Assembly (NCBI GenBank): GCA_036339975.1
Contig: JAYYZV010000155.1
Coordinates: forward strand, 1,449-65,448
Direction: 5' to 3'
DNA from: Pseudomonadota bacterium
GTDB taxonomy: Bacteria; Pseudomonadota; Alphaproteobacteria; MPNO01; UBA830
DNA length: 64,000 nucleotides
Numbering within the stretch: the stretch's first letter is position 1; each line of letters opens with the position of its first letter. A program made the position numbers and the translations under genes. Positions 6,695-47,425 of this stretch are shown here, piece after piece. Under the pieces are notes generated by a model that was not told the origin of the DNA, made no database searches, and saw only the letters and a list, made by a program, of their open reading frames with translations.

Positions 6695-6958
6695 AAGAAT
6701 TTTTATTGGTAGAACTCAGGTAACAAAGTTTGTCGGCCGTTTCCCGCTCTGATCCACGTTCATAAGAGCTGCGGTCACACGACTTGTTAATCGATAACAA
6801 GTTACATGGCCACAAGCCAGCCGGACGGTGGTAAAAAAGCTGAATTATATCTTTTGGCCAGTGCCACAGTATTCAAATTTGAATAAAGCCGGCCAGATCG
6901 GAGAAATGAACCGGCGGTTGCGAGCCGCGATATCTAATCGCCAAATTTGGAGGTTTTC

Positions 6959-7035: not shown

Positions 7036-7124
7036 ACCGGAACCGGCGGGTTTATACCTCTAGCGACAGCGACCGGCAAGCAATAGGAGGGTTTCCGTCG
7101 GCGGATTGTTGACTTGTCTCTGGC

Positions 7125-7982: not shown

Positions 7983-7988
7983 GTATTT

Positions 7989-9011: not shown

Positions 9012-9089
9012 GGAGGCCTCGATTCTTGACGATTGCTATAGATATACGGAACATAGTTCGAGCAAGGTGCCGGTCAAGATGGAAGAAGC

Positions 9090-9308
9090 ATGAAAGAACT
9101 GCTCCGATCCAATGAAATTGTGTTTCTGTCGTGGGTTGAAGCGCTGCTCAAATCCGAAGGCGTAGAAACCTTCATCCTCGACGGCCATATGAGTGTGCTG
9201 GAAGGCAGCGTCAGTGCTATACCCCGAAGGATCATGGTTTCTGAAAAAGACTATCATCGTGCACGCGGGGTACTTCATGAATCGGGCGAAGGAGATCGTT
9301 TTGCCTGA
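9090..9308 (+). CDS. DUF2007 domain protein (putative signal-transducing protein)
   Basis: 72-aa protein in the conserved position divergent from ispB and upstream of the MTase. Sequence family recognised only by resemblance. Confidence 0.5.
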   Translation: MKELLRSNEIVFLSWVEALLKSEGVETFILDGHMSVLEGSVSAIPRRIMVSEKDYHRARGVLHESGEGDRFA

Positions 9309-27863: not shown

Positions 27864-28100
27864 TAGGGTGGTCGGGTCAAGTTGCTAACTTTAAGTTGCC
27901 GGAATGCTAGCTCTTATTTCTGCGTTATTGGCCGGTTTCCAGTATGACAGGGGCCTATCAATCCCGATTTAGAGTATGCTGATTTTCTATGCTTGCGATG
28001 GTAGTTTTTGTATGTGAAACTAAAATGTTGATTAATAAACAGTTCGATATCTAAGTAATTGTTAAAATGCCGGTAACGGGAGATGAGGGTGAGCGAGAAT

Positions 28101-28586
28101 ATGAAATCGATGCTGTCGTTTCAGGTCAACGGTCGTCAGCGTGACGATGCTGTAGCCGGCAATTTGCTGCTAGTCGACTATCTGCGAGAAACTGTAGGGC
28201 TCACAGGTACGAAAATTGGTTGCGACGGCGGCGAATGTGGATTGTGCACTGTCTTAATCGACGGCCAGGCCCAACACTCATGTCTGACGCTAGCTGCAAC
28301 CTGCAATGGAACGTCGGTCGAGACGATCGAATCGCTTGCGGATGGTGGTCGATTGAATGCCATCCAGCGTGGATTTCACGAAAAACTCGGTGCCCAGTGT
28401 GGGTTTTGTACTCCTGGTATGGTGATGGCTGCAGAAGGGCTTCTCCGGTCGGATCCAGATCCGGATGACGCGACAATCCGTAGGGAAATGGCGGCAAATA
28501 TTTGCCGTTGCACAGGGTATGTGAAGATCATCGAAGCCGTTCGCTTTGCCGCCGACGAAATCAAAATAGCGACGGAGGCCGTGTGA
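28101..28586 (+). CDS. Molybdenum hydroxylase (xanthine dehydrogenase/CoxS family) small subunit, (2Fe-2S)-binding
   Basis: Two [2Fe-2S] motifs: [11 protein letters not shown] (plant-type) and [12 protein letters not shown]...CRCTGY (four-helix bundle type). Confidence 0.9.
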
Positions 28587-30919
28587 TGGATGGAGACGGT
28601 GTGCCGCCAGTTCCTATACCCTCTATCGGACAGCCCCTGCCGATGGTGGATGGGCCGGAAAAGATAGCTGGTAAAGCCCAGTACACATCCGACTTCTACG
28701 ACCCCTCCGCGCTGACTGGTGTTATAAAGCGTTCTACCGTTGCGCACGCCCGGATACTATCCGTGGACACTTCGGCGGCCGAGGAACTCCCCGGGGTCCA
28801 TGCCGTAATTACAGGCAGCGAAACTGACGAAGGTCACGGGGTGCTACCCATCGCCCGGACAGAACTACCAATTGCCTACGATCGTGTGCGCTATCGAGGC
28901 GAGCCCGTCGCGGCGGTCGCTGCCGACAGCGTCGAGATCGCGGCGCAAGCCAGCGATCTGATAAAAGTCGAATATGAGGAGCTTCCTGCCTATTTTACCG
29001 CTGCCGATGCGATGGCTGACGGGGCGGTTGATTTACACGAACACCGGCTCGGAAACATAGAACGTCATGTTGAATTCGAAATCGGCGACGTTGACGGTGG
29101 ATTTGCAGAGGCCGATCTTATCCATGAAACGGAATACCATTGTGCTGAGGTTTGCCAGGTCCAAACCGAACCTCACGCGGCATATGCTGAGTACGATGCT
29201 GAACGGGGCGAACTAACAGTTCGTGCAAGCACGCAGGTTCCATATTACGTGCATCTGATGCTCGCTAAGACCCTCAAGATGCCGAAGTCCAAGATCCGCG
29301 TGATCAAGCCTTATCTGGGTGGCGGTTTCGGCTGTCGGACCGAAGCGCTAAACGTAGAAATGATCACGGCAATGCTTGCGCGACGAGCTAAGGGTACGGT
29401 GCGGACCGTGATCAGTCGGGAGGACACCTTCATTACGCACCGCGGTCGCCAAGAGCAGACTGTCAGAATTCGTATGGGAATGACAAAGGAAGGCCGCGTC
29501 ACTGCAATAGACTGTCATACGGTTCAGCGTGGGGGTGCCCATTCGGGTTACGGTATCGTTACAATTCTATATGCGGGTTCGATGCTATTCGCGATCTACG
29601 ACCTTCAGAACGCGCGCTACGACGGTAAACGCGTTCTCACCAATACGCCGCCATGCGGGGCTTTTCGCGGTCACGGGACGGTCAATACACGGCATGCATT
29701 TGAGAATGCGCTTGACGAGATGGCCGAGAAACTTGGTCTCGATCCGTTCGCTGTTAGGCGTGTCAACCTGATTCCGGAACTGGGTTTTACGGCCACCGAT
29801 CAGTGGATCAACTCCTATGGCCTACCAGAATGCCTTGATATCGTTGAGAAGGCGTCCGGTTGGAAGGATAAGATAGGTAATATGCCGCCCGGCAAAGGTT
29901 TGGGGCTTGGGTGTTCGCACTATATTTCGGGTGCTTCGAAGCCAGTCAACTGGACAGGCGAGCCGCATGCGACGATCAACCTCAAGCTCGATTTCGATGG
30001 GACCGTTGTAATACTCACCGGCGCGTCAGAGATTGGGCAGGGATCAAATACGATACTAGTTCAATGCGTCGCGGAGGTGCTGGGGATAGACCCGTCACGG
30101 GTGAAGGTCGTCGATGCAGATAGCCGCGTAACGCCTAAAGACAACGGTTCCTATTCGTCACGGGTCACCTATATGGTTGGCAATGCGGCAATAGAGGCTG
30201 CGAATAACCTTAAAGGTGTACTGGTAGAGGCGGCGGCACGTAAATTTGAAGTTAGCCCAGAGGATGTCGAGTGTCTTGGAGAAGTATACCGCGCAGGTAC
30301 CCAGGACGAGGGCATGACGTTTGAAGAGGTTGTTATGGCGGCGCTCGAAGGCACCGGTACTATTACAGTGAAGGGAAATTTCGATACGCTGCCTGAAAGT
30401 TGGGGTGGAAAAAAATACCGGGGCGCAGCGATTGGTGGGACGATGGCATTTTCTTACGCTGCGCAGGTGGTCGAGGTCACCGTTGATCCTGACACTGCCG
30501 AAATCACTGTAGACAAGGTCTGGGTTGCGCATGACTGCGGCAAGGCCCTGAATCCGTTGACGGTCGAGGGTCAGATTCAGGGGTCCGTCTGGATGGGGAT
30601 GGGGCAGGCGATGACAGAGGAGACGGCCTACCACGATGGGTTGCTAATCAGTGGTAACATGTTGGACTATCGCGTCCCGACTTTCATGGATTCACCACCC
30701 ATCGAGGCGTATATCGTGGAATCTAACGATCCTAATGGCCCGTTTGGCGCGAAAGAGGCGGGTGAGGCTTCGTTAGCGGGATTTCTGCCGGCGCTTACCA
30801 GCGCAGTCGCAAATGCTATGGGCGTGCGCATTCATGAGCTACCCGTTACACCCGACCGGCTACTTCAGTTGCTGGAAGATAAGGAGCGTGAAATGGGCGC
30901 TTCAACGGCGGCGGAATAG
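28586..30919 (+). CDS. Molybdenum hydroxylase large subunit (molybdopterin-binding, aldehyde oxidase/xanthine dehydrogenase a/b hammerhead + MoCo domains)
   Basis: About 778 aa with the GAFRGHG Mo-site region. No CODH-type VAYRCSFR loop, so not a CO dehydrogenase. ATG overlaps the small-subunit stop (TGATG); the listed ORF from 28502 is an in-frame upstream extension. Confidence 0.85.
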
Positions 30920-30929
30920 GAGAGCTAGC

Positions 30930-31904
30930 ATGGAAAACATGCCTGAATTTAATCTTTACCGTCCGGAAACAGCTGCGGAAGCGGTTAAACTTAAAGCCTC
31001 CGATGCTACCTCCAGGTATCTCGCTGGCGGTACAGACATGATCGTCAACGTTCGCCGGGGTATTGAGACTCCTAGAACAATGATTGACCTGACCGCGATT
31101 ACGGAAATTGCGGCGATATCTGTTGGGGATGGGGATCTGCGAATTGGAGCTGGCGTAAAACTTTCCAAGCTGGCGACCGAAGAAAACATCCTTCGCGACT
31201 ATCCGGCTGTTGCACAGGCTGCTGCTTCTGTAGCCGGGCCGACACACCGATCCTATGGGACGATAGGCGGTAATTTGTGCCTGGATACGAGGTGTCTTTT
31301 CTATAACCAATCCCAGTGGTGGCGCGAAAGTAATAATTTCTGCCTTAAGCACAAGGGTGAAATATGCCACGTTGCACCTGGCGGCAAGCGGTGTTTCGCG
31401 GCTTTTTCCGGTGACGTCGCACCGGCAATGATGGTTTACGGGGCGCAGGCTGATCTAGAAGGGCCTGGCGGCGTACGTACAGTTGCATTGGCTGATATAT
31501 ACCGTAATGACGGTATGGACCATTTGGCGCTGGAACCCAACGAACTGCTTGTTTCGATCCGCCTTCCTAATCCAGCTGCGGGAACAGTTTCGGGATACGA
31601 AAAGTCACGTATCCGCGGATCGATCGACTTTCCGCTTGCCGGTTGCGCCGTGCGCCTGACGGCCAAAGATGGCAAACTTCTAGAGCTCGACATTGCACTG
31701 ACCGCGGTGAACCCCTATCCGCAGATGGTGACCGGCTTAGATGGCTTCACTGGTAAAGCGCTCGATGACCAAGCACTTGATGCCATCCGGGAGGTTGTCC
31801 GAAAACAGGCTAAGCCAATGCGAACAACGACGATTCGACCATGGTATCGGCGCCGCGTGGTTGGAGCGTTAGCGCGGAAACTGGTGGCGCGGCTCTCGGC
31901 TTAA
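30930..31904 (+). CDS. Molybdenum hydroxylase medium subunit, FAD-binding (CoxM/XdhB-like)
   Basis: YLAGGTDMIV FAD-binding PCMH motif and GGNLC motif. ATG at 30930 is preceded by AGGAGA 7 nt upstream. Confidence 0.85.
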   Translation: MENMPEFNLYRPETAAEAVKLKASDATSRYLAGGTDMIVNVRRGIETPRTMIDLTAITEIAAISVGDGDLRIGAGVKLSKLATEENILRDYPAVAQAAASVAGPTHRSYGTIGGNLCLDTRCLFYNQSQWWRESNNFCLKHKGEICHVAPGGKRCFAAFSGDVAPAMMVYGAQADLEGPGGVRTVALADIYRNDGMDHLALEPNELLVSIRLPNPAAGTVSGYEKSRIRGSIDFPLAGCAVRLTAKDGKLLELDIALTAVNPYPQMVTGLDGFTGKALDDQALDAIREVVRKQAKPMRTTTIRPWYRRRVVGALARKLVARLSA

Positions 31905-33351: not shown

Positions 33352-34587
33352 TTAGGCGCTTTTGGTTACGGTGCGACGCGGGATTGGCTTATCGTTGATG
33401 GGGTAATTCATCAACGATGCGACGAAACCCATAATAATAGCGGCCCACCACACGGCGTTGTAATTTCCAAACACATCAAAGAAATAGCCTGCGGCGTAGA
33501 TGCCAATAAAGCTGCCAAGTTGATGCGCTACGAATGCGAAACCAAATAGCATGCCCATAAAGCGAAGCCCGAATACCCGCGCGACGATGGAACCGGTCAG
33601 CGGCACGGTGCCTAACCATAGAAGTCCCATGGCCGCCGAGAAGATGATAACATTGGTAGCTGTCGGTGGAAGCATAATGAAGGCAACCATTATCACCGAC
33701 CGTAGGCTATACAGCCAGCACAGCAAGAATTTTTGCCTGAACTTACCGCCGGCGGCCCCCCAGGCGAATGTTCCAATAATGTTGAAAGCCCCAATGAGCG
33801 AAAGCGACATTGCGGCAATGGTTGTGTCCACGTCGAGGTTGCGCAGCATGTTAGGAAAGTGTGTGCCGATAAACATGGTCTGTAACCCACAAACGAAATA
33901 TCCGCCGGTCAAGAGTACATAACCTCTGTGGGAAAAGGCCTCTCGGATAGCTTCAGTGGTACTTTGCGGTGGAGGTGCGGCAGCCGCCGCGTCGCCCACA
34001 TTTTTGCGGACCATGACAAAGGCCAAAGGTACGATCAGCAGAGTCATGATCGACATTACATAAAGGGACATCACCCATCCCTGACTGTCGATAAAGAACT
34101 GTCCCAGTGGGATCATTATAACCTGACCCGACGAGCCGCCGGCACTGGCAATTCCGAGATAGAAATCGCGTTTTTCGGGGGCGACCGCGCGGCTGATGGC
34201 GGAGAGGATAATTGGGAACATAGCTCCCGACATCGCGAAGCCAGTGAAGACGCCAATTGACAGGTGCGCCATTAAAGGTGTGCTGGAAACAGTCATTAGA
34301 AGCAGGCCCGCGGTATAAATCAGCCCTGCTGCCGCGATGACCCGTCCTGTCCCGAATTTATCGGCAATATTCCCCGCAATTGGTGTGCCTATACCCCAGA
34401 AAAGAGATTGTAGTGCTATCGATAGCGACAGGATCTCGATCTGGCCGCCAAATAGTTCATTGGATGCATCAGGCATCCATAGACCGAAGGTCATCCGAGC
34501 GCCGAGCGACAGGAAGACAATTGTCGTGCCTGCTAACAGAATGACAAAGGGTGTGCGCCAGTTATGCACAGAATCTAATGAGGTCAT
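33352..34587 (-). CDS. MFS transporter (paralog A of tandem pair)
   Basis: 411 aa, 12 TMS. Homologous throughout to the downstream gene at 34713..35960 (shared WRTP, GIGTPIAG/GLTTPITA, GTHFPNML/GTHLPNFL). Confidence 0.8.
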   Translation of the reverse strand: MTSLDSVHNWRTPFVILLAGTTIVFLSLGARMTFGLWMPDASNELFGGQIEILSLSIALQSLFWGIGTPIAGNIADKFGTGRVIAAAGLIYTAGLLLMTVSSTPLMAHLSIGVFTGFAMSGAMFPIILSAISRAVAPEKRDFYLGIASAGGSSGQVIMIPLGQFFIDSQGWVMSLYVMSIMTLLIVPLAFVMVRKNVGDAAAAAPPPQSTTEAIREAFSHRGYVLLTGGYFVCGLQTMFIGTHFPNMLRNLDVDTTIAAMSLSLIGAFNIIGTFAWGAAGGKFRQKFLLCWLYSLRSVIMVAFIMLPPTATNVIIFSAAMGLLWLGTVPLTGSIVARVFGLRFMGMLFGFAFVAHQLGSFIGIYAAGYFFDVFGNYNAVWWAAIIMGFVASLMNYPINDKPIPRRTVTKSA

Positions 34588-34712: not shown

Positions 34713-35960
34713 TCACGCACCCGCCGGTTGCAACCGCTCGACCGGTTTATCGTCTATAGGGAAGTGCAGCGCTGCAGCGATGATGCCAAGTAAGATACCT
34801 ACCCACCAGATCGTATCGTAAGAACCCGTGCTTTCGAAAAATACACCCCCGAGCCAGGCACCGACGAAACTTCCGAGTTGGTGGCTGAAAAATACAATTC
34901 CTGTCAGTGTTGCCATGTACCTCAGGCCGAATATACGCGCGACGAGGCCGGAGGTCAGGGGCACCGTAGCTAGCCATAGAAGGCCTATTGCCGCTGCAAA
35001 GATGTAGGTGCTCCAAGGCGTGACAGGTAAGAGGATGAAGATCGCCAACACCAGAGAGCGAAGAAGGTAAATTGAAGTCAGTAGGTATTTCATTCGCCAT
35101 CTGCCGCCCATTGCGCCCCAGAACAGCGTACCGAGAATGTTGAACAAACCGATCAACGATAGCGCTGTCGCGCCGACCCAAGGGTCTTGTCCTGCTTCGC
35201 TGAGAAAATTGGGCAAGTGAGTACCGAGAAACATCACCTGATAACCGCAAACGAAATATCCGGCGGTAAGTAACAGAAAACCGCGATGAGCCATCGCTTC
35301 GCCGATGGCGTCCGTGAGTTTTTGTGCTGGTGCCGCACCGGAAACGGCAGACCCGCGCGTCTCATCTTTCATCGCGGTAGCTAGTGGGACAATAAGCGCG
35401 ACAAGACAACCAAAAACGATGGCGGTGATAGCCCAACCGTATCCGTTGATAAAAAACTGTCCCATCGGGACCAAGGCGAGCTGGCCGGACGAACCTGCGG
35501 CACTACCTATACCGAGAAATAGGCTGCGACGCTTTGCGTCGACACGCTTAGTGATCGCTGCGAGGATAATAGGAAAGCCCGTAGCGCTGAGCCCAAGACC
35601 TAGCATCAACCCAGCGGTTAAATTCATATGCATTGGCGTTTGCACCAGCGACATAAGGATGAGTCCACCGGCATAAAGCACGCCGCCGATCGCAATCATC
35701 CTCCCTGTTCCGAAGCGTTCGGCTAGCGATGCGGTGATCGGAGTAGTTAGACCCCAGATCACCGCCTGAAGTCCGATAGCAAAGGAGAAGTCGCCCACAC
35801 TTAGCCCCGCCGACTCTGTCATCGGGTCTAGCAGAATTCCGAAAATGTTACGTGCGCCAAAACTGATGAACAGGATGATAGTTCCGCAGGTCAAAACGAC
35901 CATTGGGGTGCGCCAAGTGTTTTTCATGATCAAAAAATTCCTCAAAGATCTTAGAGACAA
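34713..35960 (-). CDS. MFS transporter (paralog B of tandem pair)
   Basis: 415 aa, 12 TMS; see the paralog at 33352..34587. Confidence 0.8.
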   Translation of the reverse strand: MSLRSLRNFLIMKNTWRTPMVVLTCGTIILFISFGARNIFGILLDPMTESAGLSVGDFSFAIGLQAVIWGLTTPITASLAERFGTGRMIAIGGVLYAGGLILMSLVQTPMHMNLTAGLMLGLGLSATGFPIILAAITKRVDAKRRSLFLGIGSAAGSSGQLALVPMGQFFINGYGWAITAIVFGCLVALIVPLATAMKDETRGSAVSGAAPAQKLTDAIGEAMAHRGFLLLTAGYFVCGYQVMFLGTHLPNFLSEAGQDPWVGATALSLIGLFNILGTLFWGAMGGRWRMKYLLTSIYLLRSLVLAIFILLPVTPWSTYIFAAAIGLLWLATVPLTSGLVARIFGLRYMATLTGIVFFSHQLGSFVGAWLGGVFFESTGSYDTIWWVGILLGIIAAALHFPIDDKPVERLQPAGA

Positions 35961-36174: not shown

Positions 36175-37653
36175 TCAATCCATCAGATAACCGTATTTCT
36201 CCTTCGCCTCGCGAACCAATTCCGGCTTCGGCGCATTGACGGTTGGGAAGCTATCTTTCCAGTGGAAGGGCTTACAGGCGTCGATTATTGCCCTGCTGTT
36301 GGTGATGTTGCCGTTAGCTTTCTGTTCGGGTGTCAGGCGAGGATCGGCAGGAGAGGTCCAGGCACCCTTTACGATGTCGATCGTTGTCGCAGGGTCGCAT
36401 CGTGTACACATGGCCCAGATGAGCTGTTCCAGATTGGTTACGTCTATATCTTCGTCGACCACGATTATAAATCGGTTGGCGTAATTTGCTGCCTGACACT
36501 GGGCCGCTATATGGCCGGCCTGTTTCGAATGACCCGGGTAGCGTTGCTTGATAGCCACGCCATGGAGTAATCGTGATGCACCGATTTCGTGGCACCAAAC
36601 ACTGGTGACGTCTGGCACGCCAGCGTCTGCCAAATTTTGTTTCAGCATGGCTGACCGCAATACGGCTCGGTATCGTGCCATCTCGTCCGATCCCTGCCCC
36701 ATTGGCGGCACCCCCAATATGATTGGGTCGTTACGATGATATATCGCCTCTACTTCCAGAACTGGTTCCGGGTGCTCACCGCTGGCATAGTAGCCCGTCC
36801 ATTCGCCAAAGGGACCTTCGTTTTTTACTTTACCTTCATACAAATGTCCTTCGAGGACGATTTCTGCATTAGCGGGAAAAGGTAAGCCGGTGATTTTGCC
36901 GGCAACACATTCCACTGCCTTACCACGAATGCCGCCGGTTATATCCAGCTCGAACGTTCCGTAGGGCGCCTCGGCCCCGCCGTTAAAGAACGCGATGGGC
37001 TCACCACCGATAACCATTGCTACTGGGCAAGGTTCACCCTTCGCCCAGTATTTGTTTCGGTGCACAAAACCGTGTTTGCCGGTTACCATGAAACAGCCAA
37101 CGGATTTTTTATCATGGACCATGGCGCGATAGGCGCCGCAGTTCATCCACCCTTCGTCCGGATCGCGGGTAACAGTATATGTGCCGGTGCCGATATAACG
37201 GCCACCATCTTCTGGGTGCCACATAGGTGTTGGGAACTTCATTAAGTCGACATCGTCATTGGTGAGTATATTCTCGAATACGGGGCCATCCTCGACCATC
37301 ACGTGTGGAATGGTCTTGCGTTCTTTTACGAAGGCGTTGAAACAGCCGTCGGAAAGCTCTTGCTTGGTGAGATGATCAGGAAAGCCCAGCGTCATATTAC
37401 GACGCAACCCACCGAACACATTGATTAGTACTCGGAAACCGTCTGGACAGCCCGGTACCCTGTCAAATAAAACCGCGGGGCCGTCGTCTTCCCGGATCAC
37501 CACCTCGGCGGCAAGCCCGATGTCCTTTTCCCAGCTGGCGCCGTCGACGCGTTTAAGTTCCCCGAGGCGGTCTGCCTGCTCGATCCAGTCGCGCAGATCT
37601 TCGTATGTGAAATTCTGGGCCGTATTGGCCCGTGATTGATCGATGTTATCCAT
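36175..37653 (-). CDS. UbiD family (prFMN-dependent) decarboxylase, paralog 2
   Basis: 492 aa. UbiD-family conserved blocks GEPCPVAMVIGG, AEIVLEGHL, EGPFGEWTGYY (catalytic Glu region), and C-terminal IVVDEDID. Confidence 0.85.
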   Translation of the reverse strand: MDNIDQSRANTAQNFTYEDLRDWIEQADRLGELKRVDGASWEKDIGLAAEVVIREDDGPAVLFDRVPGCPDGFRVLINVFGGLRRNMTLGFPDHLTKQELSDGCFNAFVKERKTIPHVMVEDGPVFENILTNDDVDLMKFPTPMWHPEDGGRYIGTGTYTVTRDPDEGWMNCGAYRAMVHDKKSVGCFMVTGKHGFVHRNKYWAKGEPCPVAMVIGGEPIAFFNGGAEAPYGTFELDITGGIRGKAVECVAGKITGLPFPANAEIVLEGHLYEGKVKNEGPFGEWTGYYASGEHPEPVLEVEAIYHRNDPIILGVPPMGQGSDEMARYRAVLRSAMLKQNLADAGVPDVTSVWCHEIGASRLLHGVAIKQRYPGHSKQAGHIAAQCQAANYANRFIIVVDEDIDVTNLEQLIWAMCTRCDPATTIDIVKGAWTSPADPRLTPEQKANGNITNSRAIIDACKPFHWKDSFPTVNAPKPELVREAKEKYGYLMD

Positions 37654-37662
37654 GGTAGTTTT

Positions 37663-37839
37663 CTAATTCTTAATAATTTCCTTGGCGTCTGCTGACGTGA
37701 ACGCATGGCCACAGCTCGGACAGATCAAGTCGATATCGCTCATCTTCAGCAACGCAGGTGATACATGAAACCAGTGATCGCATTTCCGGCACTGAGCCCA
37801 GTTGGAATTGCCTTGTTTTTCGAACGGTGCGTCGGTCAT
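37663..37839 (-). CDS. Small Cys4 zinc-ribbon protein (58 aa), candidate accessory small subunit of the UbiD pair (BsdD/VdcD/PpcC-like in size and position)
   Basis: Found by hand; below the 60-aa cutoff of the six-frame track. Translation: MTDAPFEKQGNSNWAQCRKCDHWFHVSPALLKMSDIDLICPSCGHAFTSADAKEIIKN, giving CxxC-x19-CxxC. Starts 8 nt after the UbiD-1 stop and ends 9 nt before the UbiD-2 start. Confidence 0.55.
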   Translation of the reverse strand: MTDAPFEKQGNSNWAQCRKCDHWFHVSPALLKMSDIDLICPSCGHAFTSADAKEIIKN

Positions 37840-37847
37840 TTGGAGTC

Positions 37848-39260
37848 TCAGCTGGGCCAGCTAGACATATCCACACCGTCCAATGTCGCCGTCGCGGCGG
37901 CCAATGCTTGGTCAGATACTCTGTTGCGGGGTGCCACGGGTTTGGGCTGATTTGGCAGGGCGGCGGCTGGGAGTGTTGCGTCGATTGCGGCTTTGGTGAT
38001 GGTATTGCCAGACGCCGGCGCGGAAGGGTCGAGCGGCGCTAAGGTTAGACCGTTGAGACGAATTACATCGCGATGCCATTGCACGCGGGTGGCCAGAGCC
38101 CACATTGCCTGACGGTCGTCGAAAATATCTATATCATCATCGAACGCATACACCGCCTTTAGACGCCGGAAGGCGATTGCCGCCATCATGGCATCGCGAG
38201 CTTCGCCGGGGCGTGGGTTCTTAAACTGCAGATAGGCATGGAACCGTCGCCCTGATACCGGCACATGTACGTTGATCAATGAAGGCGACACCTGACGAGC
38301 AAGAGAATAAACGTAGCCTTCCATACCCATGTTGTCTGGGACGAGGTGGTCGGGTAGGCCTGACCCGCAATCGTGGTAAATAGCATCCTTCCGCCGGGTT
38401 ATGCATGTCACTTCAACGACCGGATTGGGAATCTGTGGCCCCTGATAGCCGGAAAACTCAGCGAAAGGACCCTCGGCCTCGATCCGGTTGGGCGGAAGAA
38501 AACCCTCGATCACGATCTCAGCGTCCGCCGGTACCATGATTTTGTCGCCATGGGTCACGGAAGGTGCGAGCCGTAAAGGCTTGCCGAGCGCACCGCCGGC
38601 GACGCCCCAATGGCTTTCCGGATAGCCCAACTTTGACTGCGCACCCATTTCGATCGCCGGGTGATGGCCGATCCAGATAGCTACCGGACAAGGCTCGCCA
38701 TTTTTCCAGAACTTCCGGAGATTTATCATGTTGTGCGAAGTTTCCAGCATATAACAGCCCATCAAATTTTTTCCACGGACCCACAGCCGCTGGATTCCCA
38801 TATTGTCTATCCCGGTATCCGGATCGTAGGTCACAACATGTCCGCAGGTTACGTAGTGTCCGGCATCTCCATCATGCTGGCGTAGAGCCGGTAAAACCTG
38901 AAGATCTGCAACATCGCCTTCCTCAACGATTTCGCGTACCGGAGCCGAGGTGGGATCGACCGTGACCGGATCTATCGCACGTGCCGAAAGCCCGGCCATT
39001 TCCTTGGCCGAGTTTCGATGATCTTCTATCCCCATGGCTCTTGCTGAAAGTTCGCGGCTAGCGAACAGATTGGTGAGCACCGGCATATCAGAAATTCTTC
39101 CGTTGGGAAGTTTCGGCTGGCGTACCAGAATTGCGGGGTTGGCATTCCTCGCCGCCATGACGTGCTGTAGTGCCGTGATTTCCTGTTCGACTGCAATAGG
39201 TTGGTCAGGCCGAAATATCGCATTGTCGATTTCGTTAAGGTAGGTGCGTAGATCAGTCAT
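37848..39260 (-). CDS. UbiD family (prFMN-dependent) decarboxylase, paralog 1
   Basis: 470 aa. GEPCPVAIWIGH, AEIVIEGFL, EGPFAEFSGYQ and FDDDIDIFD blocks, homologous to paralog 2. Start overlaps the upstream PhyH gene by 8 nt. Confidence 0.85.
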   Translation of the reverse strand: MTDLRTYLNEIDNAIFRPDQPIAVEQEITALQHVMAARNANPAILVRQPKLPNGRISDMPVLTNLFASRELSARAMGIEDHRNSAKEMAGLSARAIDPVTVDPTSAPVREIVEEGDVADLQVLPALRQHDGDAGHYVTCGHVVTYDPDTGIDNMGIQRLWVRGKNLMGCYMLETSHNMINLRKFWKNGEPCPVAIWIGHHPAIEMGAQSKLGYPESHWGVAGGALGKPLRLAPSVTHGDKIMVPADAEIVIEGFLPPNRIEAEGPFAEFSGYQGPQIPNPVVEVTCITRRKDAIYHDCGSGLPDHLVPDNMGMEGYVYSLARQVSPSLINVHVPVSGRRFHAYLQFKNPRPGEARDAMMAAIAFRRLKAVYAFDDDIDIFDDRQAMWALATRVQWHRDVIRLNGLTLAPLDPSAPASGNTITKAAIDATLPAAALPNQPKPVAPRNRVSDQALAAATATLDGVDMSSWPS

Positions 39261-40095
39261 TCGGGGCTGTCGATCTTTCCACTTCGGAGATATTTTCGGG
39301 ATCGATATAGGAATTCCAGAAGTCGTTGTAGTACTTCAAATTGGCTGGGTCGAGGTCACGCTCGGGCAATGGGTCGCGTTTCCAATATCCGTAATCGTCC
39401 TTTCCGCGCACCAGGATTGCGGTGTTTAGCTGATTAGTTGGCTTTACGTGCGTCGGACAGAAGACGAATAAGATTCCCACACGGCGACGATCGCTGGTGT
39501 TGGGTTCCGACGAATGCGCCAGCCGGAAGTGGTGCAAGGTGCACTCTCCCGGGTCCAATTCGACGTTGATAGCGCCGGATTCGTCAAACTGGTCTGATGA
39601 AATTTTTTGTCCGCGGGCTAACATGTTCTGCGGGTCGTGAGTTTCATCATGCATCATTTCCGGATCGTTGTGACTGCCGGGAAGGTATTTAAGGCAACCG
39701 TTGTCGAAGTGACTATCGGTAATTGCGATCCAAGCGCTCCATACTTCCATCGGCTCGTACCCAAAGTAAGCCGAATCCTGATGCCAGGTCACAAAGCGTG
39801 GGTCGCGCGCATCCTTGGGCCAGATCGCACAGGTCGTAAGCAGTATGTCAGGTCCTAACACGTCTTCTATGGCGTCCAGAAGTTTGGGTGTTGTTCCGAG
39901 CTCGAATAGCCACTTAAACAGGACATGTGGTTTTACTGAAAGCAATTCCGGTACATCGATACCCTGCCGCGCCTCAACTGACTCATACGCGGCCCTTACT
40001 TTGGCTATATTGTCACTATCCATAATTCGGACCGGAAAGACGCATCCGTCCGCCTGCGCGCGCTTCATTTGCTCTTCCGTCAGCAACTTGGTCAT
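39253..40095 (-). CDS. Phytanoyl-CoA dioxygenase (PhyH) family Fe(II)/2-oxoglutarate-dependent oxygenase
   Basis: WHQDSAYF (HxD iron ligands) and later His in the LHHFRLAHSS region; about 280 aa, typical of PhyH-family proteins. Confidence 0.7.
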   Translation of the reverse strand: MTKLLTEEQMKRAQADGCVFPVRIMDSDNIAKVRAAYESVEARQGIDVPELLSVKPHVLFKWLFELGTTPKLLDAIEDVLGPDILLTTCAIWPKDARDPRFVTWHQDSAYFGYEPMEVWSAWIAITDSHFDNGCLKYLPGSHNDPEMMHDETHDPQNMLARGQKISSDQFDESGAINVELDPGECTLHHFRLAHSSEPNTSDRRRVGILFVFCPTHVKPTNQLNTAILVRGKDDYGYWKRDPLPERDLDPANLKYYNDFWNSYIDPENISEVERSTAPND

Positions 40096-40396
40096 TTCCG
40101 CTTTCTCCCACGAAACAGAGCAAAAGAATGGCGGCGTGAGGCGGCAGTGTCCAGAGGATTGGGGTAGGCTCGCCTGGAAACCAGAGAAATTCCGGGGGTC
40201 GCGGACTACGTCTTGTTAACCACGCGGCTGCTCTATAAGATTTCGATCGATTGTTTGTCTGCACCACCGGTTCGGAGGTTTTGGCTGCGGGTTTATTGTC
40301 CTAGCAAACAATTGCGATTAGTCGGGTCGCGGGGGAGTGCGTACATTTGACATACAGCCGGGGGTTTTCCCGGTATCCAAATCAGGGAAACGCATA

Positions 40397-41461
40397 ATGG
40401 GAAAATTTAGGGTGATTAGTAGGGGTATCGCAGCGGCAGCAGTGTTAGGGGCCGTGGCAGTATCCCCGGTACAGGCGCAGAAATATAATTTCAAACTCAC
40501 CTCCTTTGTCCCGGCAAAGGGCGGTTTTTGGAATAACTACATGGGTCGTTTCATCAACGCTGTCGATCTGATGACTAACGGCCAAGTAAAAATCAAGGGT
40601 TACAGTGTGGGTGTGCTAGCAGGCCCATTTGATGGATGGAAAGCGGTTCAAAAAGGCACTGCCGATATCTGTTATTGTTATCCGGGCTTTGCGGTCAATG
40701 CTGATCCGTCAAACGGCATCTTCGCCGGCATGGTGGGCGGGATGCCGATGGAAGAGTTCATGCACTGGTTCGTAGCTGGAGAGGGAACCAAACTACTCAC
40801 AGAGATGAGAAGCAAAACACAGAAGCTTCACCCCGTTGTCACCGGTTTTGGGCCAACAGAGATATTTCTGCATTCCCATCGAAAAATTCAGACCATTGCC
40901 GATCTCAAAGGAATGAAAATCAGAACAGCGGGAGCCTGGGCTGATATTTTGAAATTGGTGGGGGCATCGCCGACGGTTCTACCGCCGGCTGATATATATA
41001 CTGCGCTAGAACGGCGCGTGATTGATGGAACGGAATTCACGTCGCCGTCAACAAATATCAAACTAGGCTTTCATAAAATTGCTAAGTACATCATCGTCCC
41101 AGGTATTCATTCTCCGTCTCACATGAATGAAGCCGTATTCAGTGAGAGTACTTGGAAGAGCCTGCCCAAAAAGATTCAAGAGCAGATCACGGCCGCTGGA
41201 CTCTACGCTGGGTTTAGGACGGCTATGAAGGCTGGTCTGGATGACATCCAAGCCATGGAAACTATGAGTAAAGGCAAAAACGAGTGGGTTTCACTTACTG
41301 CGGCCGCACAACAAAAAATTAAGGACCTTGGTCGGGAATGGTCTTTCGATCAGGCAAAAAAACAGTCGGCTAAAGGAAACCCATGGATGGCGAAGGTTGC
41401 GGGGTCTTACTGGGGTTTCTATGACCGGTGGAAGAAGTACGGTACCTACCGGCATAACTGA
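40397..41461 (+). CDS. dctP: TRAP transporter substrate-binding protein (DctP family)
   Basis: Signal peptide (RGIAAAAVLGAVAVSPVQA) followed by a DctP-type periplasmic binding fold of about 330 aa. ATG at 40397 with AGGGAAA upstream; the listed ORF from 40337 is an upstream extension. Confidence 0.8.
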   Translation: MGKFRVISRGIAAAAVLGAVAVSPVQAQKYNFKLTSFVPAKGGFWNNYMGRFINAVDLMTNGQVKIKGYSVGVLAGPFDGWKAVQKGTADICYCYPGFAVNADPSNGIFAGMVGGMPMEEFMHWFVAGEGTKLLTEMRSKTQKLHPVVTGFGPTEIFLHSHRKIQTIADLKGMKIRTAGAWADILKLVGASPTVLPPADIYTALERRVIDGTEFTSPSTNIKLGFHKIAKYIIVPGIHSPSHMNEAVFSESTWKSLPKKIQEQITAAGLYAGFRTAMKAGLDDIQAMETMSKGKNEWVSLTAAAQQKIKDLGREWSFDQAKKQSAKGNPWMAKVAGSYWGFYDRWKKYGTYRHN

Positions 41462-41511
41462 CCATAAACAAATTCTGGGGCCGAAGCCTTTGCATCTATA
41501 AATGCTTTGAC

Positions 41512-42084
41512 TTGAGCTTCGGCCCCGATTTTAAAATGCGTCGCATCCTCTCCATAGTTGACAGGGTCTCGGTTCTCCTCGCCGTGATAGCGGGGGTTAT
41601 GTTGCTGGTCCTGATTGTTGACATGATGTACGAGGTCGTTTCACGTCGCGTGTTCTCCGCACCGACGCTATGGGCTTACGATATCGCTTATATGGTCAAC
41701 GGTGTCGGTTTCCTTTTTGCTGCAGGTTACACACTCCGCAAAAACGCCCATATACGCATTGATTTTCTGTCTACGCGGCTGGCTCGACGGCATCAGGACT
41801 GGATCAATGTGGTTGCGTACATTTTTCTAATTTTTCCGGCATTATTGTTTTTTGTCATCGGCGCGTATTCTGAATTTGTAGAGGCTTTCAAGACGAATGA
41901 ACTCGACCCAGCCAGCCCTTGGAAACCTCTGTTGTGGCCGCTTTTTGCGGGTCTGTTGATAGGATTTACAGGCCTTTTTCTGCAGGCCGTTGTGGAATGC
42001 ATACGACATACCTATAGCGCCCTTGGTTTAATTCTGTCGCCACTGGAGCAGTCAGGAGACAGCCTGACCGAGAAAAATGGCTGA
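41512..42084 (+). CDS. dctQ: TRAP transporter small permease (DctQ family)
   Basis: 4-TMS, about 180 aa, located between the DctP and DctM genes. The alternative ATG at 41536 could also be the start. Confidence 0.75.
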   Translation: MSFGPDFKMRRILSIVDRVSVLLAVIAGVMLLVLIVDMMYEVVSRRVFSAPTLWAYDIAYMVNGVGFLFAAGYTLRKNAHIRIDFLSTRLARRHQDWINVVAYIFLIFPALLFFVIGAYSEFVEAFKTNELDPASPWKPLLWPLFAGLLIGFTGLFLQAVVECIRHTYSALGLILSPLEQSGDSLTEKNG

Positions 42085-43402
42085 TCTGTCCTTAGCTGTT
42101 TTTATGTTTCCGATGCTGTTTTTGCTGGTATTTGCAGGTATACCGGTCGCATTTAGCCTGATCGCTACAGCCTTTCTGTTCGGTGTGATGGAGTTCGGCA
42201 TGGTGCTGCCAACTCAATTCCACAGCCGTCTGTTCGACGTAACATCCAATTTTGTGCTTGCCGCTATTCCGTTGTTTGTATTCATGGGTGCGATGCTGGA
42301 GCGTGCGGGCATCGCTGCCCGACTTTTTGAAGCGATCAAGATCTGGTTTGGCGCGCTGCGCGGTGGCCTAGCGATCACGACCATTATCATGTGCGGCATC
42401 TTTGCGGCTTCGTCTGGTGTCGTCGGCGCGGTCGAAATTGTCGTAGGCCTGATGGCGGTGCCAGCGATGATGGGGGCTGGATATAAAAAGGATCTTGCAG
42501 CCGGCACAGTCTGTGCCGGCGGGTCTTTGGGCACTACTATCCCGCCATCCGTAGTCATTATCGTTTATGCGTCCATCACAGAACAGTCAGTCGGCGATCT
42601 GTTCGCCGGAATTCTTATTCCTGCCGGAGTGCTGGTTAGTTTGTTCCTAGTCTATATCGTCGGCCGTTGCCTATTGCAGCCCGAAGCGGGCCCCGGTCTC
42701 TCCGCTGACCAAGAAAGAGTACCACTATCAACTAAGTTATGGTTGATGCTGACAGCTTTACTTCCTGCGTCGTTACTGATCGTCGCTGTCTTAGGTAGTA
42801 TTTTTGCCGGTATCGCGGCTCCAACGGAAGCGGCTGCCGTGGGAGCGATGGGCTCCGTTCTTCTCGCGATCGCCTATCGTCAATTTTCTTTCCGTATTTT
42901 GAAGGAAGCCGTGACCCAGACAATCAAGATCACGTCGATGGTAATGTTAATCGTACTCGGTGGGATTTTATTCGCCAGCGTGTTCATCATTCAAGGTGGT
43001 GACGACCTGGTATCCAATATTGTAGAAAGCACCGGCCTAGGGCCAGCAGGGATCGTGGTAGTGTTTTTGCTGGTTGTCTTTGTGCTTGGATTCGTTCTGG
43101 ATTGGATATCGGTGTTAATCATCGTGCTACCGATCGCCGACCCGATCGTCCGTGCGGCAGAGATAGATCCGCTATGGTTCGGCGTTATGGTTTGTATCAT
43201 CCTGCAGACATCGTATTTGACACCCCCGATGGCACCGTCAATCTTTTATCTACGGTCTATTGCGCCCAGAGAAATTACCTATATCGACATGTACAAGGGT
43301 GTCGTGCCTTTTGTTTTAGCGCAACTCCTGACACTGGCTATGGTCGCGATTTATCCCGTGACCGCCACGTGGTTACCGGAGGTTCTGTTCGGCGGCTTCT
43401 AG
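42077..43402 (+). CDS. dctM: TRAP transporter large permease (DctM family)
   Basis: 441 aa, about 12 TMS. Overlaps the dctQ stop by 8 nt, the classical TRAP operon order. Confidence 0.85.
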   Translation: MADLSLAVFMFPMLFLLVFAGIPVAFSLIATAFLFGVMEFGMVLPTQFHSRLFDVTSNFVLAAIPLFVFMGAMLERAGIAARLFEAIKIWFGALRGGLAITTIIMCGIFAASSGVVGAVEIVVGLMAVPAMMGAGYKKDLAAGTVCAGGSLGTTIPPSVVIIVYASITEQSVGDLFAGILIPAGVLVSLFLVYIVGRCLLQPEAGPGLSADQERVPLSTKLWLMLTALLPASLLIVAVLGSIFAGIAAPTEAAAVGAMGSVLLAIAYRQFSFRILKEAVTQTIKITSMVMLIVLGGILFASVFIIQGGDDLVSNIVESTGLGPAGIVVVFLLVVFVLGFVLDWISVLIIVLPIADPIVRAAEIDPLWFGVMVCIILQTSYLTPPMAPSIFYLRSIAPREITYIDMYKGVVPFVLAQLLTLAMVAIYPVTATWLPEVLFGGF

Positions 43403-43414: not shown

Positions 43415-44746
43415 CTAACCGGTTTCTGAAATTGCTTCGCCCAATATTGAGATGATCTCGGTAATTTGGCCCGTCGTCGCAATCAGGGGTGGCGACATGG
43501 CAATGGTATCTCCAGTTTGACGTACCAGCAGGCCTTTTTCGTAGCACTTGAGAAAAACTTCATAGGCCCGGGCCGTAGGCTCACCGTCGCGAGGAGACAA
43601 CTCTACCGCTCCCATCAAACCCAAATTGCGGATATCTATAACGTTCGGCATGGGCTTCAGCCCGTGAATAGCATCTTCCCACATCGGTGCCAGAGCCTTA
43701 CCCCGGCTAAACAAGTCGTCTTCCGCAAATACGTCGAGCGTCGCCAGCGCCGCCGCGCAGGCCAGAGGGTGCGCGGAGTAGGTATAGCCGTGAAAAAGCT
43801 CAATCATTTGGGACGGTCCATGCATAAACGTGTCATATATTTCAGCGCGAGCAGCGACCGCAGACATCGGCACGGTGCCGTTGGTCAAGCCCTTCGCCAT
43901 GGTCAAAAGGTCCGGCACAATCCCGAAATACTCTGCGGCAAAAGTATCTCCAAGTCGGCCGAAGCCAGTGATGACCTCGTCAAAGATTAACAAGATGCCA
44001 TTGGCGTCGCAGGTTTTGCGCAGTTTATCGAGATATCCTTTCGGCGGCACTAACACGCCCGTAGATCCCGCTACAGGTTCGACGATGACCGCGGCGATCG
44101 TGGAAGGATCATGTAACGCGATGATACGTTCCAAGTTGTCTGCCAGATGGCCGCCCCAGTCCGGCTCACCCCGTGAGAAGGCCATTTCAGCTAGATTATG
44201 GGTGTGCGGAAGGTGATCTATACCTGCCAGTAGATTTCCGAACTGTTTTCGGTTGTTCGAAATGCCGCCTACCGAGGTACCCCCGATGCCGACACCATGA
44301 TAACCGCGTTCGCGCCCGATCAGCCGGGTGCGGCCCGCTTCGCCACGGAGTTGATGATATGCCAGCGCCATTTTCAATGCCGTGTCGACTGCTTCCGAGC
44401 CAGAGTTAGCGTAAAACACGTAGTCGAGATCACCTGGAAACAGGTTGGCGAGCCGCGATGACAGGTCGAAAGCGCCGGGGTGTCCCCACTGGAATGTAGG
44501 CGCATAATCCATGACACCCGCCTGAGTGCGGATGGCCTCCGTGATTTTCTCCCGCGCGTGGCCGGCGTTGACACACCACATGCCGGCTGCTGCATCCAGA
44601 ATCTGACGCCCCTGATCGTCCGTATAGTGCATGTCTTTAGCGGAAACCATTAGCCGCGGAGCCGATTTGAACTGTCGGTTCGCTGTAAACGGCATCCAGA
44701 AATGCTCAAGAGTGTTGGTCTTTCGTGCCGTTGCGTCGTCGGGCAT
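43415..44746 (-). CDS. Class III (omega) aminotransferase, beta-alanine/omega-amino acid--pyruvate transaminase-like
   Basis: PLP fold type I class III. FDEVITGFGRLG region with the PLP-Lys context TMAKGLTNG; 443 aa. Confidence 0.8.
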   Translation of the reverse strand: MPDDATARKTNTLEHFWMPFTANRQFKSAPRLMVSAKDMHYTDDQGRQILDAAAGMWCVNAGHAREKITEAIRTQAGVMDYAPTFQWGHPGAFDLSSRLANLFPGDLDYVFYANSGSEAVDTALKMALAYHQLRGEAGRTRLIGRERGYHGVGIGGTSVGGISNNRKQFGNLLAGIDHLPHTHNLAEMAFSRGEPDWGGHLADNLERIIALHDPSTIAAVIVEPVAGSTGVLVPPKGYLDKLRKTCDANGILLIFDEVITGFGRLGDTFAAEYFGIVPDLLTMAKGLTNGTVPMSAVAARAEIYDTFMHGPSQMIELFHGYTYSAHPLACAAALATLDVFAEDDLFSRGKALAPMWEDAIHGLKPMPNVIDIRNLGLMGAVELSPRDGEPTARAYEVFLKCYEKGLLVRQTGDTIAMSPPLIATTGQITEIISILGEAISETG

Positions 44747-46207: not shown

Positions 46208-47425
46208 TTATTCGATTGCTTTTGCTTCCTCCAACATTTGCATCAGAGATGATCGCATTAGGTAATCCCGCTTAGCTTCTGCATCAGTCGCGGTAAACTC
46301 TAATTCCTTGAGACGTTTTTCCCGCGCCTCTGGATCGTTTTCCTCCAGCAGTCTCTTGTTGGCGATAGACTGCGCCTGAACGTATTTCTCGGCCATTGGC
46401 CGTCGTTGGCGGTCGTAGCGGCTGAGCAGGGCATCATAGTCACCACCGTGCCAAGCTGCGACGAGCTTCTCGGCCAGGTTCAGCCCGTCATGAATTCCAC
46501 TATTCATTCCCATGCCGCCTAGAGGGTTGTTTACATGGGCGGCGTCCCCTGCGAGTGCGACCCGACCCTTCGCGAAGCTTTCAGCCACCCGCTGATGCAC
46601 GCTATAGAGATTTCTGTGTAGCAGGTCGTAAGGTGGATCGTACGGATAGCACTCGGCGAAGCGGGCTTGGATCCATTCATCACTGAGCAGGTATTCGTCG
46701 GTGCTATCGCCGAAAGCCGGAAAGAGCGCCCGCCAGACACCCTCGGCCTGCTCGCCCGGCACCTTGATCATTGCACACCATTGTTCCGGATGCGCGACGT
46801 AGTTGCGATACCGATAGCCGGCCGCCGCCTCAAAGTCATAGTAGGTAGACACGATAATGAACCGTTCTTCCCAGGTAAAACCTGGGAAATTAATATCGAG
46901 TAATTTGCGCACCGCTGATTTCCCGCCGTCGGCTCCGATCAGAAATTTTCCGCGATGTGTTTCAGTCGATCCGTCCGGCGCTTGGACGCGGGCTTCAACC
47001 CCGTCATCGTCCTGCGATAACTCCGAGAGTTTATGTTCGCGATAAAGCTCGAATCCGTCGATAGCCACCGCAATGTCGTGAGCGATTTCAATCGTCTTGT
47101 GCTGTTCCAGCTGTAGCGCATAAGGGTAGGTAAGAACATCTGAGATATCGCGATAATCAAACTCTGCGACGATGCGGTCGCTCATCCGGTCGCGCCACTG
47201 AAAAAGTGGGGATTGGATGCCCCGACGGATAAGCTCCTCTGTCATATCCAATTTTTCGAGTAGCATCAGTGTCGAAGGGTGCAAAGTGGACGCTCGGTGG
47301 TCCGCCGGTATTTCAGCGAGTGTGTCAAACACCTTTACCGGTATGCCTGCTTTCGACAAGGCTAGAGCCGTGGTCATACCCACCGGTCCCGCTCCTGCTA
47401 TCAAAATGCAATCGTTGTTCGCCAT
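46208..47425 (-). CDS. FAD-dependent monooxygenase (UbiH/salicylate hydroxylase-like, class A flavoprotein)
   Basis: ILIAGAGPVGMTTALAL (GxGxxG) and GRVALAGDAAHVNNPLGGMGMNSG (GD and DG fingerprints). Confidence 0.8.
   Translation of the reverse strand: MANNDCILIAGAGPVGMTTALALSKAGIPVKVFDTLAEIPADHRASTLHPSTLMLLEKLDMTEELIRRGIQSPLFQWRDRMSDRIVAEFDYRDISDVLTYPYALQLEQHKTIEIAHDIAVAIDGFELYREHKLSELSQDDDGVEARVQAPDGSTETHRGKFLIGADGGKSAVRKLLDINFPGFTWEERFIIVSTYYDFEAAAGYRYRNYVAHPEQWCAMIKVPGEQAEGVWRALFPAFGDSTDEYLLSDEWIQARFAECYPYDPPYDLLHRNLYSVHQRVAESFAKGRVALAGDAAHVNNPLGGMGMNSGIHDGLNLAEKLVAAWHGGDYDALLSRYDRQRRPMAEKYVQAQSIANKRLLEENDPEAREKRLKELEFTATDAEAKRDYLMRSSLMQMLEEAKAIE

Follow-up and report, generated by a model that had tools for sequence, protein, structure and literature searches.

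The window analysed here is a stretch of 64,000 nucleotides from the genome of a marine, uncultured alphaproteobacterium (contig JAYYZV010000155.1). Its minus strand carries a run of four genes that, in the open reading frame (ORF) listing, follow each other in the order PhyH, UbiD-1, micro-ORF and UbiD-2. They encode a PhyH-type Fe(II)/2-oxoglutarate oxygenase, two members of the UbiD decarboxylase family and, between these two, a zinc ribbon of 58 aa with four cysteines. We consider it somewhat more probable than all other readings together (about 55%) that this locus is a chromosomal catabolic operon for one or several (hetero)aromatic carboxylic acids. Its core would be UbiD-1 with the ribbon as a subunit, similar in design to VdcCD but with a small partner that is not, or not detectably, homologous, and UbiD-2 would act independently. 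What is new here is a widespread, uncharacterised UbiD subfamily with its own ribbon partner and an altered metal site, and not a heteromer of two UbiD proteins. Literature on UbiD together with PhyH, on UbiD sequence-similarity networks and on UbiD and pyridine dicarboxylates nowhere describes this operon. Since no characterised matching operon was found in the literature or by the family tests, the original prediction, made from the DNA of the window, is supported in its view that the locus belongs to no described pathway. Gene models were derived from the ORF listing and direct reading of the sequence, and families were assigned by Pfam and NCBIfam scans.

UbiD-1 and the zinc ribbon as a conserved pair

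The micro-ORF has the cysteine pattern C17-x2-C20-x19-C40-x2-C43, and its product is annotated by NCBI as a hypothetical protein (VX700_12080). Its conservation, invariant cysteines and purifying selection identify it as a real gene, more than a chance ORF. For comparison, 82 loci encoding relatives of UbiD-1 were compiled, 80 of which (L003–L082) are the best matches from the genome collection. Of the 82 loci, 56 have a small ORF with two CxxC pairs directly 3' of the UbiD-1 homologue, and one further copy is interrupted by a contig end. The UbiD-1 stop codon and the start of the ribbon ORF are no more than a few bases apart, often with an overlap of 4–16 nt, and the linkage persists down to a UbiD-1 identity of 34%. 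The loci bearing it come from Alpha-, Gamma- and Deltaproteobacteria, Acidobacteriota, Symbiobacteriaceae, Clostridia, Binatia and Spirochaetales. Alignment of 43 ribbon sequences (mean identity 30%) leaves only the four cysteines invariant, with Pro41 and Phe47 nearly so. Compared with its close relatives the ribbon has a nonsynonymous divergence (dN) of 0.17–0.35 at saturated synonymous divergence (dS), and dN/dS amounts to 0.11 in the one computable pair. The expectation that the micro-ORF is conserved in orthologous loci is thus borne out by its presence in these loci, the four invariant cysteines and the low dN. Furthermore, the pairwise identities of ribbon and UbiD-1 are correlated (r = 0.71, Mantel p ≤ 0.001).

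According to profile and fold comparisons the ribbon is a new family, outside the known UbiD accessory families. A word-indexed homologue search with the micro-ORF yielded 2 matches only. The ribbon profile, used in an exhaustive search of 1.84 billion representatives, retrieved 80 members, nearly all of them stand-alone proteins of 52–91 aa. Fusions of UbiD and ribbon were found neither among 120 UbiD-1 homologues nor among the 80 ribbon-family representatives. When the 43 ribbon homologues were scanned singly, 37 matched MJ0042_CXXC and 40 matched Zn_ribbon_4. The micro-ORF, the 43 homologues and their profile run against the PDB gave no match to models or chains of VdcD, BsdD or the Ppc small subunit. 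An AlphaFold2 model of the micro-ORF, built on 2 sequences, shows a beta-rich ribbon with a mean confidence (pLDDT) of 77.5. Foldseek searches with this model returned generic ribbons only, with nothing at an E-value below 0.25 and no VdcD. The relationship to BsdD, VdcD or the Ppc small subunit that had been considered for the micro-ORF therefore fails in the hidden Markov model scans of the micro-ORF and its 43 homologues, in the profile search and in Foldseek alike. As a separate observation, 6–12 tandem copies of the module recognised by the ribbon profile occur in the long proteins P0245 (1919 aa), P0297 (932 aa), P0305 (682 aa) and P0318 (1047 aa).

The arrangement of neighbouring genes differs between groups of loci. 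Clade A consists of the window, L001 and L003–L008, with UbiD-1 identities of 79–91%. Its gene order is PhyH, UbiD-1, ribbon, (Amidohydro_2), UbiD-2 and two genes for transporters of the major facilitator superfamily (MFS), where the Amidohydro_2 gene is present in L001, L006 and L007. In clade A' (61–64%) UbiD-1 is followed by the ribbon and an MFS gene, without UbiD-2. Clade B (about 40 loci, 49–57%) has UbiD-1 and ribbon, in some cases preceded by UbiX, without UbiD-2 or PhyH, and also carries genes for a short-chain dehydrogenase/reductase, a GntR regulator, an MFS transporter, an aldehyde dehydrogenase and a methyltransferase. In 24 clade-B loci (among them L015, L016, L018–L021, L024, L026 and L030–L033; e.g. 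positions 11961–12683 of L018) a heme-oxygenase-fold protein of ~240 aa, annotated as 'iron-containing redox enzyme', is encoded directly 3' of the ribbon. It matches PF14518, the CADD model (94 bits) and the PqqC model (62 bits), all below the cut-offs, and may represent a different oxygenase in place of the PhyH of the window. The most distant relatives (34–39% UbiD-1 identity) are mostly anaerobes and often possess a second, non-orthologous UbiD.

Altogether, about 48 loci have UbiD-1 and ribbon but no UbiD-2. UbiD-2 adjoins UbiD-1 only in clade A, where it lies within 2.7 kb in all eight genomes. Elsewhere its orthologues (64–73% identity) are found alone next to an EamA transporter, next to TctC and a glucose-methanol-choline (GMC) oxidoreductase, or next to another UbiD type and a cupin, and UbiD-1 and ribbon are absent from all of these contexts. 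Consequently, the conserved functional unit is UbiD-1 with its ribbon. PhyH is located upstream of UbiD-1 in seven of the eight clade-A genomes (it is missing in L008) and in only one genome of clade A'. The operon of the window is a lineage-specific assembly of modules, to which UbiD-2 and PhyH were added. The original prediction had taken PhyH, two UbiD proteins and the micro-ORF for one co-occurring unit with PhyH as a fixed partner, and had compared it to a heteromeric phenylphosphate carboxylase joined by an oxygenase. These neighbourhoods do not support such a unit, and the family tests described below fail as well. A different composition was observed in L083 (positions 5962–9467), where a UbiD-2 orthologue of 73% identity is preceded by a third UbiD type (541 aa) and a cupin-like ORF of 121 aa. 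This layout is also UbiD, small ORF, UbiD, but it is built from other parts than the operon of the window.

Active sites and relation to characterised UbiD systems

In both UbiD-1 and UbiD-2 all three Pfam domains (UbiD_N, UbiD and UbiD_C) score above threshold, both pass TIGR00148 (259.3 and 271.1 bits, cut-off 244.85), and each contains the EGPF(A/G)E..GY and GEPCPVA blocks. Neither protein reaches the equivalog cut-offs for UbiD proper, menaquinone decarboxylase or BagN. The two are only 29% identical, which rules out a recent tandem duplication. Their description as a tandem paralogue pair had to be abandoned, since they belong to different subfamilies, UbiD-1 being HmfF-like and UbiD-2 PhdA/PpcB-like. 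At E ≤ 1e-30 UbiD-1 has 954 relatives, the nearest of which are from uncultured marine Alphaproteobacteria (UBA7314, 91%; UBA830 and MarineAlpha11, 87%). The 80 best genome matches are all metagenome-assembled genomes (MAGs), except for one single-cell genome, and include no cultured isolate. In 11 related loci UbiX is encoded within 8 kb of the UbiD-1 homologue; therefore, dependence of the UbiD-1 family on prenylated flavin mononucleotide (prFMN) is expected.

Catalytic sites were compared by aligning both UbiD proteins with those of E. coli (UbiD), PtHmfF and PhdA, and in a residue table over the 82 loci. UbiD-1 retains Asn153, Arg158, His176, Glu263 and Glu268. We take the ligands of Mn2+ and the prFMN phosphate in Fdc1 to be N168, H191 and E233. 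All three are present in UbiD-2, whereas UbiD-1 keeps two of them (N153 and H176) and has His217 in the third column, which is Glu in Fdc1, HmfF, UbiD and PhdA. All loci with a UbiD-1 identity of 45% or more (L001–L066) share His217; the relatives at 34–39% keep Glu or Asp. Judging from this distribution, the exchange of Glu for His at residue 217 is a family signature and not a sign of decay, and in principle a histidine at this position can still ligate the metal. The E(D)-R-E network, numbered R173, E277 and E282 in Fdc1 (PMC8379154), corresponds to R158, E263 and E268 in UbiD-1 and to the aligned Arg and the EGPFGE motif in UbiD-2, and is conserved across both families. Both UbiD proteins thus look catalytically competent, as had been predicted. 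The prediction holds in both proteins for the N-x4-R motif with its Asn and Arg, for the ligand His and for E(D)GPFxE; it does not hold for the Mn ligand of UbiD-1, where Glu is replaced by His217.

The closest solved relative of UbiD-1 is the 2,5-furandicarboxylate decarboxylase HmfF (PtHmfF, PDB entry 6H6V; 213 bits, 37% identity). HmfF keeps the canonical Glu metal ligand, which UbiD-1 does not, and has no reported small partner. Unlike in the HmfF system, no hmf pathway genes and no HmfG/UbiX are present in the window. His305 of UbiD-1 aligns with the heteroatom-recognising, furan-specificity histidine of HmfF, reported as H297 (PMC7976604). This residue is kept in clades A and A' and is Met in clade B. 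Arg338 and Arg339 of UbiD-1 are invariant, and Arg339 aligns with HmfF Arg331 (counted along the alignment). Another HmfF residue, which we presume to be Arg304, corresponds to Met313. His305 and the arginine pair are weak hints that UbiD-1 acts on a heteroaromatic acid, possibly a dicarboxylate. The UbiD-1 family also has a conserved C-terminal extension of ~40 aa (residues about 430–470, encoded at 37848–37970 of the window), which ends in Trp-Pro and contains the invariant residues P439, P441, V448, A456, W468 and P469. The aligned segment of PtHmfF stops before this extension, which might serve as a docking element.

UbiD-2, whose exact sequence is not on record, has the full canonical set of Asn, Arg, His and Glu together with EGPFGE. 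Its closest solved and characterised relative is PhdA, the Mycobacterium fortuitum decarboxylase that acts on phenazine-1-carboxylic acid (PDB entry 7PDA; 368 bits, 40% identity over 463 aa). This identity is too low for a transfer of the substrate, and PhdA was solved as a hexamer of one protein. Further differences to PhdA are the marine host, the operon context and the lack of an adjacent PhdB/UbiX. Among the NCBIfam models, that of Ppc-beta fits UbiD-2 best.

The phenylphosphate carboxylase PpcABCD from Thauera/Aromatoleum resembles the window in that two UbiD-like genes and a small ORF share an operon. With the Ppc-beta model (TIGR02724, cut-off 468.95) UbiD-2 reaches 293.8 and UbiD-1 108.7 bits, and with the Ppc-alpha model (TIGR02723, cut-off 564.6) 178.1 and 94.2 bits, respectively. 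In contrast to PpcABCD, neither a phosphatase-like delta subunit nor a gamma homologue nor a phenylphosphate synthase was found in the window, and the two UbiD genes are not co-conserved. The likeness to VdcCD and BsdCD is of another kind: in these, too, a UbiD-family gene is followed by the gene for a very small Cys4 (2 x CxxC) zinc ribbon. VdcC requires VdcD for its activity, and this Cys4 zinc ribbon forms a tightly bound allosteric subunit adjoining the E-R-E loops; VdcD, Ppc-gamma and LpdD have no sequence similarity to one another (PMC8379154). The VdcC model (NF041204, cut-off 650 bits) scores 230.0 with UbiD-1 and 239.7 with UbiD-2. The ribbon of the window differs from VdcD, since its first CxxC is found in the middle of the sequence after an EKxGN motif rather than at the N-terminus. 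Moreover, the window has no adjacent vdcB/UbiX, and the Mn ligand of UbiD-1 is changed as described above. Because of the sub-cut-off scores, identities of 37–40% and missing partner genes, membership in the Ppc, VdcCD, HmfF or PhdA systems was not assigned. By these comparisons the locus lies outside every characterised UbiD system and appears to work most like VdcCD, with a zinc-ribbon activator for a UbiD enzyme. By analogy with VdcD and VdcC, we infer that the ribbon protein is a small subunit bound to UbiD-1 in a structural or allosteric role; its family is either not homologous to that of VdcD or too distant for a relationship to be detected.

Proposed function and competing explanations

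In the proposed catabolic operon the MFS carriers, and perhaps also the tripartite ATP-independent periplasmic (TRAP) transporter next to it, would import an aromatic or heteroaromatic carboxylate. The holoenzyme of UbiD-1 and ribbon would remove one carboxyl group, and UbiD-2, acting independently, would remove another or act on a related acid. Both decarboxylases would use prFMN supplied by a UbiX encoded elsewhere in the genome. Hydroxylation by PhyH, of the ring or of a side chain, would precede or follow decarboxylation, and the sister genomes would add an Amidohydro_2-type decarboxylase. The order of these steps and the substrate class are deduced from the gene content. A combination of decarboxylase and carriers resembling oxalate/formate antiporters (OFA) would also allow precursor/product antiport, which is speculative.

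Several observations weigh against this assignment. In sequence and fold, all that the ribbon shares with VdcD is membership in the generic ribbon class, and PtHmfF was described as active with no partner mentioned (PMC7976604). A Steroidobacteraceae/Acidibacter subclade and members of the Acidobacteriota lack the ribbon gene (loci L043, L045–L050, L057, L058 and L061); the ribbon is hence not universally required. In L030 an internally deleted ribbon remnant is found at about 9400–9480 (MAQGMKIASSACCPLCHTKLPLA); together with the absence from these subclades it indicates that the ribbon partner can be lost. The His-for-Glu change in UbiD-1 could alter or abolish binding of metal and prFMN. 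Hints on the substrate from neighbouring genes are in conflict, since those of related loci recall the catabolism of N-heterocycles and the 4-hydroxybenzoyl-CoA-reductase-like genes of the window point to phenolic acids. Finally, a ribbon gene between two UbiD genes is also found in L041, L070 and L074, which are distant loci, and this keeps a heteromeric enzyme under consideration.

In such a heteromer, UbiD-1, ribbon and UbiD-2 would form one multi-subunit (de)carboxylase comparable to Ppc alpha, beta and gamma. The tight packing with gaps of only 8 and 9 nt, the Ppc-beta model as best match of UbiD-2 and the proximity of both UbiD genes in all eight clade-A genomes agree with this, as do the recurrent gene order just mentioned and tandem UbiD genes in L075, L078 and L082. 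We nevertheless regard it as unlikely. The Ppc scores are far below their cut-offs, homologues of delta or gamma were not found among the annotated ORFs of the window, and each of the two UbiD types is also encoded without the other. Moreover, a gene is inserted between ribbon and UbiD-2 in three of the eight clade-A genomes, and the second UbiD proteins of the distant loci are not orthologous to UbiD-2. About equally improbable is a ribbon that acts as a maturation or metal-insertion factor, a prFMN-loading chaperone or a small regulator, instead of being a stoichiometric subunit. Its likeness to generic zinc ribbons only (MJ0042 and Zn_ribbon_4 types) and its loss in some UbiD-1 subclades would fit such a role, and the tandem copies in long unrelated proteins suggest a general-purpose binding module. 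A position right after the UbiD-1 stop that is strictly conserved and often overlapping speaks for a subunit, however, and co-divergence with UbiD-1 also fits a stoichiometric partner. In addition, VdcD, the sole studied precedent, is an integral subunit and not a transient factor (PMC8379154).

The least likely of the rival explanations, to which we give very little weight, is a biosynthetic or carboxylating operon that tailors a (hetero)aromatic metabolite, e.g. a cofactor or secondary metabolite. In its favour, UbiD enzymes can run their reactions in both directions (PMC8988006), and the tailoring of natural products is a frequent role of PhyH-type enzymes; the solved relatives of the PhyH include EvdO2, SnoK/SnoN and MysH. 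Yet no genes for non-ribosomal peptide synthetases, polyketide synthases or ligases are found nearby, where the neighbours are housekeeping genes and transporters. Typical of catabolism, on the other hand, are the GntR regulators, aldehyde dehydrogenases, amidohydrolases and transporters that related loci encode.

A catabolic operon with a UbiD-1/ribbon core thus remains our preferred reading. It could be extended to a considerably bolder proposal, for which the odds are low: UbiD-1 and ribbon would constitute a new, widespread class of prFMN (de)carboxylases with an Asn-His-His metal site, an obligate ribbon, O2-dependent oxygenases as partners and a heteroaromatic polycarboxylate as substrate. 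All members known so far come from marine, freshwater and soil bacteria, as MAGs apart from one single-cell genome. The partner would be PhyH in the window and a CADD/PqqC-like enzyme in about 24 other loci. Conceivable substrates would be a pyridine or pyrrole dicarboxylate or a compound like pyrroloquinoline quinone (PQQ), abundant but unrecognised. In the lineage of the window, a three-component complex with the PhdA-like UbiD-2 and antiport by the OFA-like MFS transporters may be added.

UbiD enzymes are sought as reversible biocatalysts that fix CO2 and activate C-H bonds. To our knowledge only a handful of them have been characterised, and VdcD is the only accessory subunit of the family that is understood. 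If the proposed pairing is correct, a second, unrelated ribbon partner on another branch would make small ribbon activators a recurrent feature of the UbiD family. The ribbon partner would also provide a testable handle on the inactivity of many recombinant UbiD proteins. Since the UbiD-1 family is common in MAGs from marine and soil habitats and no cultured isolate is among the 80 best genome loci, its substrate may belong to a pool of dissolved aromatic or heteroaromatic acids that has been overlooked.

Gene organisation, oxygenase and genomic setting

The end of PhyH and the start of UbiD-1 overlap by 8 nt (ATGACTGA). The micro-ORF ATG follows the UbiD-1 stop after a gap of 8 nt, and the UbiD-2 ATG follows that of the micro-ORF after 9 nt, so that ORF table and raw sequence reproduce the minus-strand arrangement, overlap and spacings of the original prediction exactly. 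Likewise, Pfam, NCBIfam and tblastn agree with it on the flanks, which are two tandem MFS paralogues and a divergent TRAP transporter (Table 1).

Table 1. Coordinates of the operon, its flanking transporters and further genes of the window that are mentioned in the text.
Feature	Position	Strand	Size and basis of assignment
PhyH-type Fe(II)/2-oxoglutarate oxygenase	39253-40095	-	280 aa; PF05721
UbiD-1, putative HmfF-related prFMN-type decarboxylase	37848-39260	-	470 aa; domain and family scans
Micro-ORF, Cys4 zinc-ribbon protein	37663-37839	-	58 aa; conservation, Cys residues, selection
UbiD-2, putative prFMN-type decarboxylase of the PhdA/PpcB clade	36175-37653	-	492 aa; nearest solved relative PhdA
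First MFS transporter	34713-35960	-	family scans
Second MFS transporter, paralogue of the first	33352-34587	-	family scans, tblastn cross-matches
TRAP transporter DctP/DctQ/DctM, divergent from the operon	40337-43402	+	Pfam assignments
HcrCAB-like molybdenum enzyme	28083-28586, about 28586-30919, 30813-31904	+	NCBIfam equivalogs
AptA-type omega-aminotransferase	43415-44746	-	AptA equivalog
FAD_binding_3 monooxygenase	46208-47425		

The window is ordinary chromosome, as indicated by glyS, ppdK, rplI, fabD/fabF, pdxA and surA. A tblastn search of the 64 kb detected no UbiX, in agreement with the prediction. A CoA ligase and a regulator, which had also been stated to be lacking, are indeed missing among the annotated ORFs; about a dozen smaller ORFs were not scanned, so the statement holds for the annotated part only. 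A scan for promoters and terminators gave counts no higher than in shuffled sequence.

PhyH matches PF05721 with 93.8 bits (cut-off 22). Its iron triad is His105-x-Asp107...His194, and Arg205 is the likely 2-oxoglutarate ligand. In halogenases the second position of the triad is Ala or Gly. Since PhyH has Asp at this position, a hydroxylase-type centre is expected, and judging from these residues it should be an active hydroxylase-type 2-oxoglutarate oxygenase. The best solved relative is PDB entry 6zyk (127 bits), with which the WHQD and HxxxxxHS..N....R motifs align. This entry was deposited as 'monooxygenase/uncharacterized protein', and a literature search for 6ZYK and 6ZYL found no relevant paper.

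The two MFS proteins are about 47% identical to each other. The first is distantly related to the oxalate/formate-antiporter and monocarboxylate-transporter groups, and an MFS gene of this type follows the ribbon in all loci of clades A and A'. It is a likely carrier for the substrate or product. The TRAP genes adjoin the operon in L003 and L004 and are located elsewhere in L001. The nearest solved relatives of the TRAP binding protein are lactate or keto-acid binders, which is uninformative on its substrate, and a link of the transporter to the operon is possible but uncertain.

The neighbours of the operon in related loci, on which the comparison with N-heterocycle catabolism is based, are genes for isochorismatase, Asp/Glu-racemase-type, hydantoinase, aconitase and isocitrate-lyase-type, HutI-type and FGase-type proteins. 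In the window itself, an HcrCAB-like molybdenum enzyme is encoded ~4.3 kb from UbiD-2, which is unexpected in an apparently aerobic marine alphaproteobacterium. Compared with the equivalogs of 4-hydroxybenzoyl-CoA reductase, alpha reaches 1093.5 bits (cut-off 994.6) and beta 421.4 bits (cut-off 404.6), and gamma with 239.4 bits is just below its cut-off of 257.8. No functional link to the operon was assumed, since the clade-A relatives do not share this neighbourhood. In three distant loci (L069, L074 and L075), Hcr-like CAB genes (alpha 41% identical) stand directly upstream of the UbiD gene. In L069 and L074 a PaaK-like CoA ligase gene precedes them and a ribbon follows the UbiD gene; L075 has no ribbon at this position. 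The proximity in the window may be coincidental or may reflect a functional link.

Beyond the TRAP genes, the omega-aminotransferase passes the AptA equivalog with 720.6 bits (cut-off 500) and is kept near the operon in all clade-A relatives. The FAD_binding_3 monooxygenase is syntenic in L003 and L005–L008.

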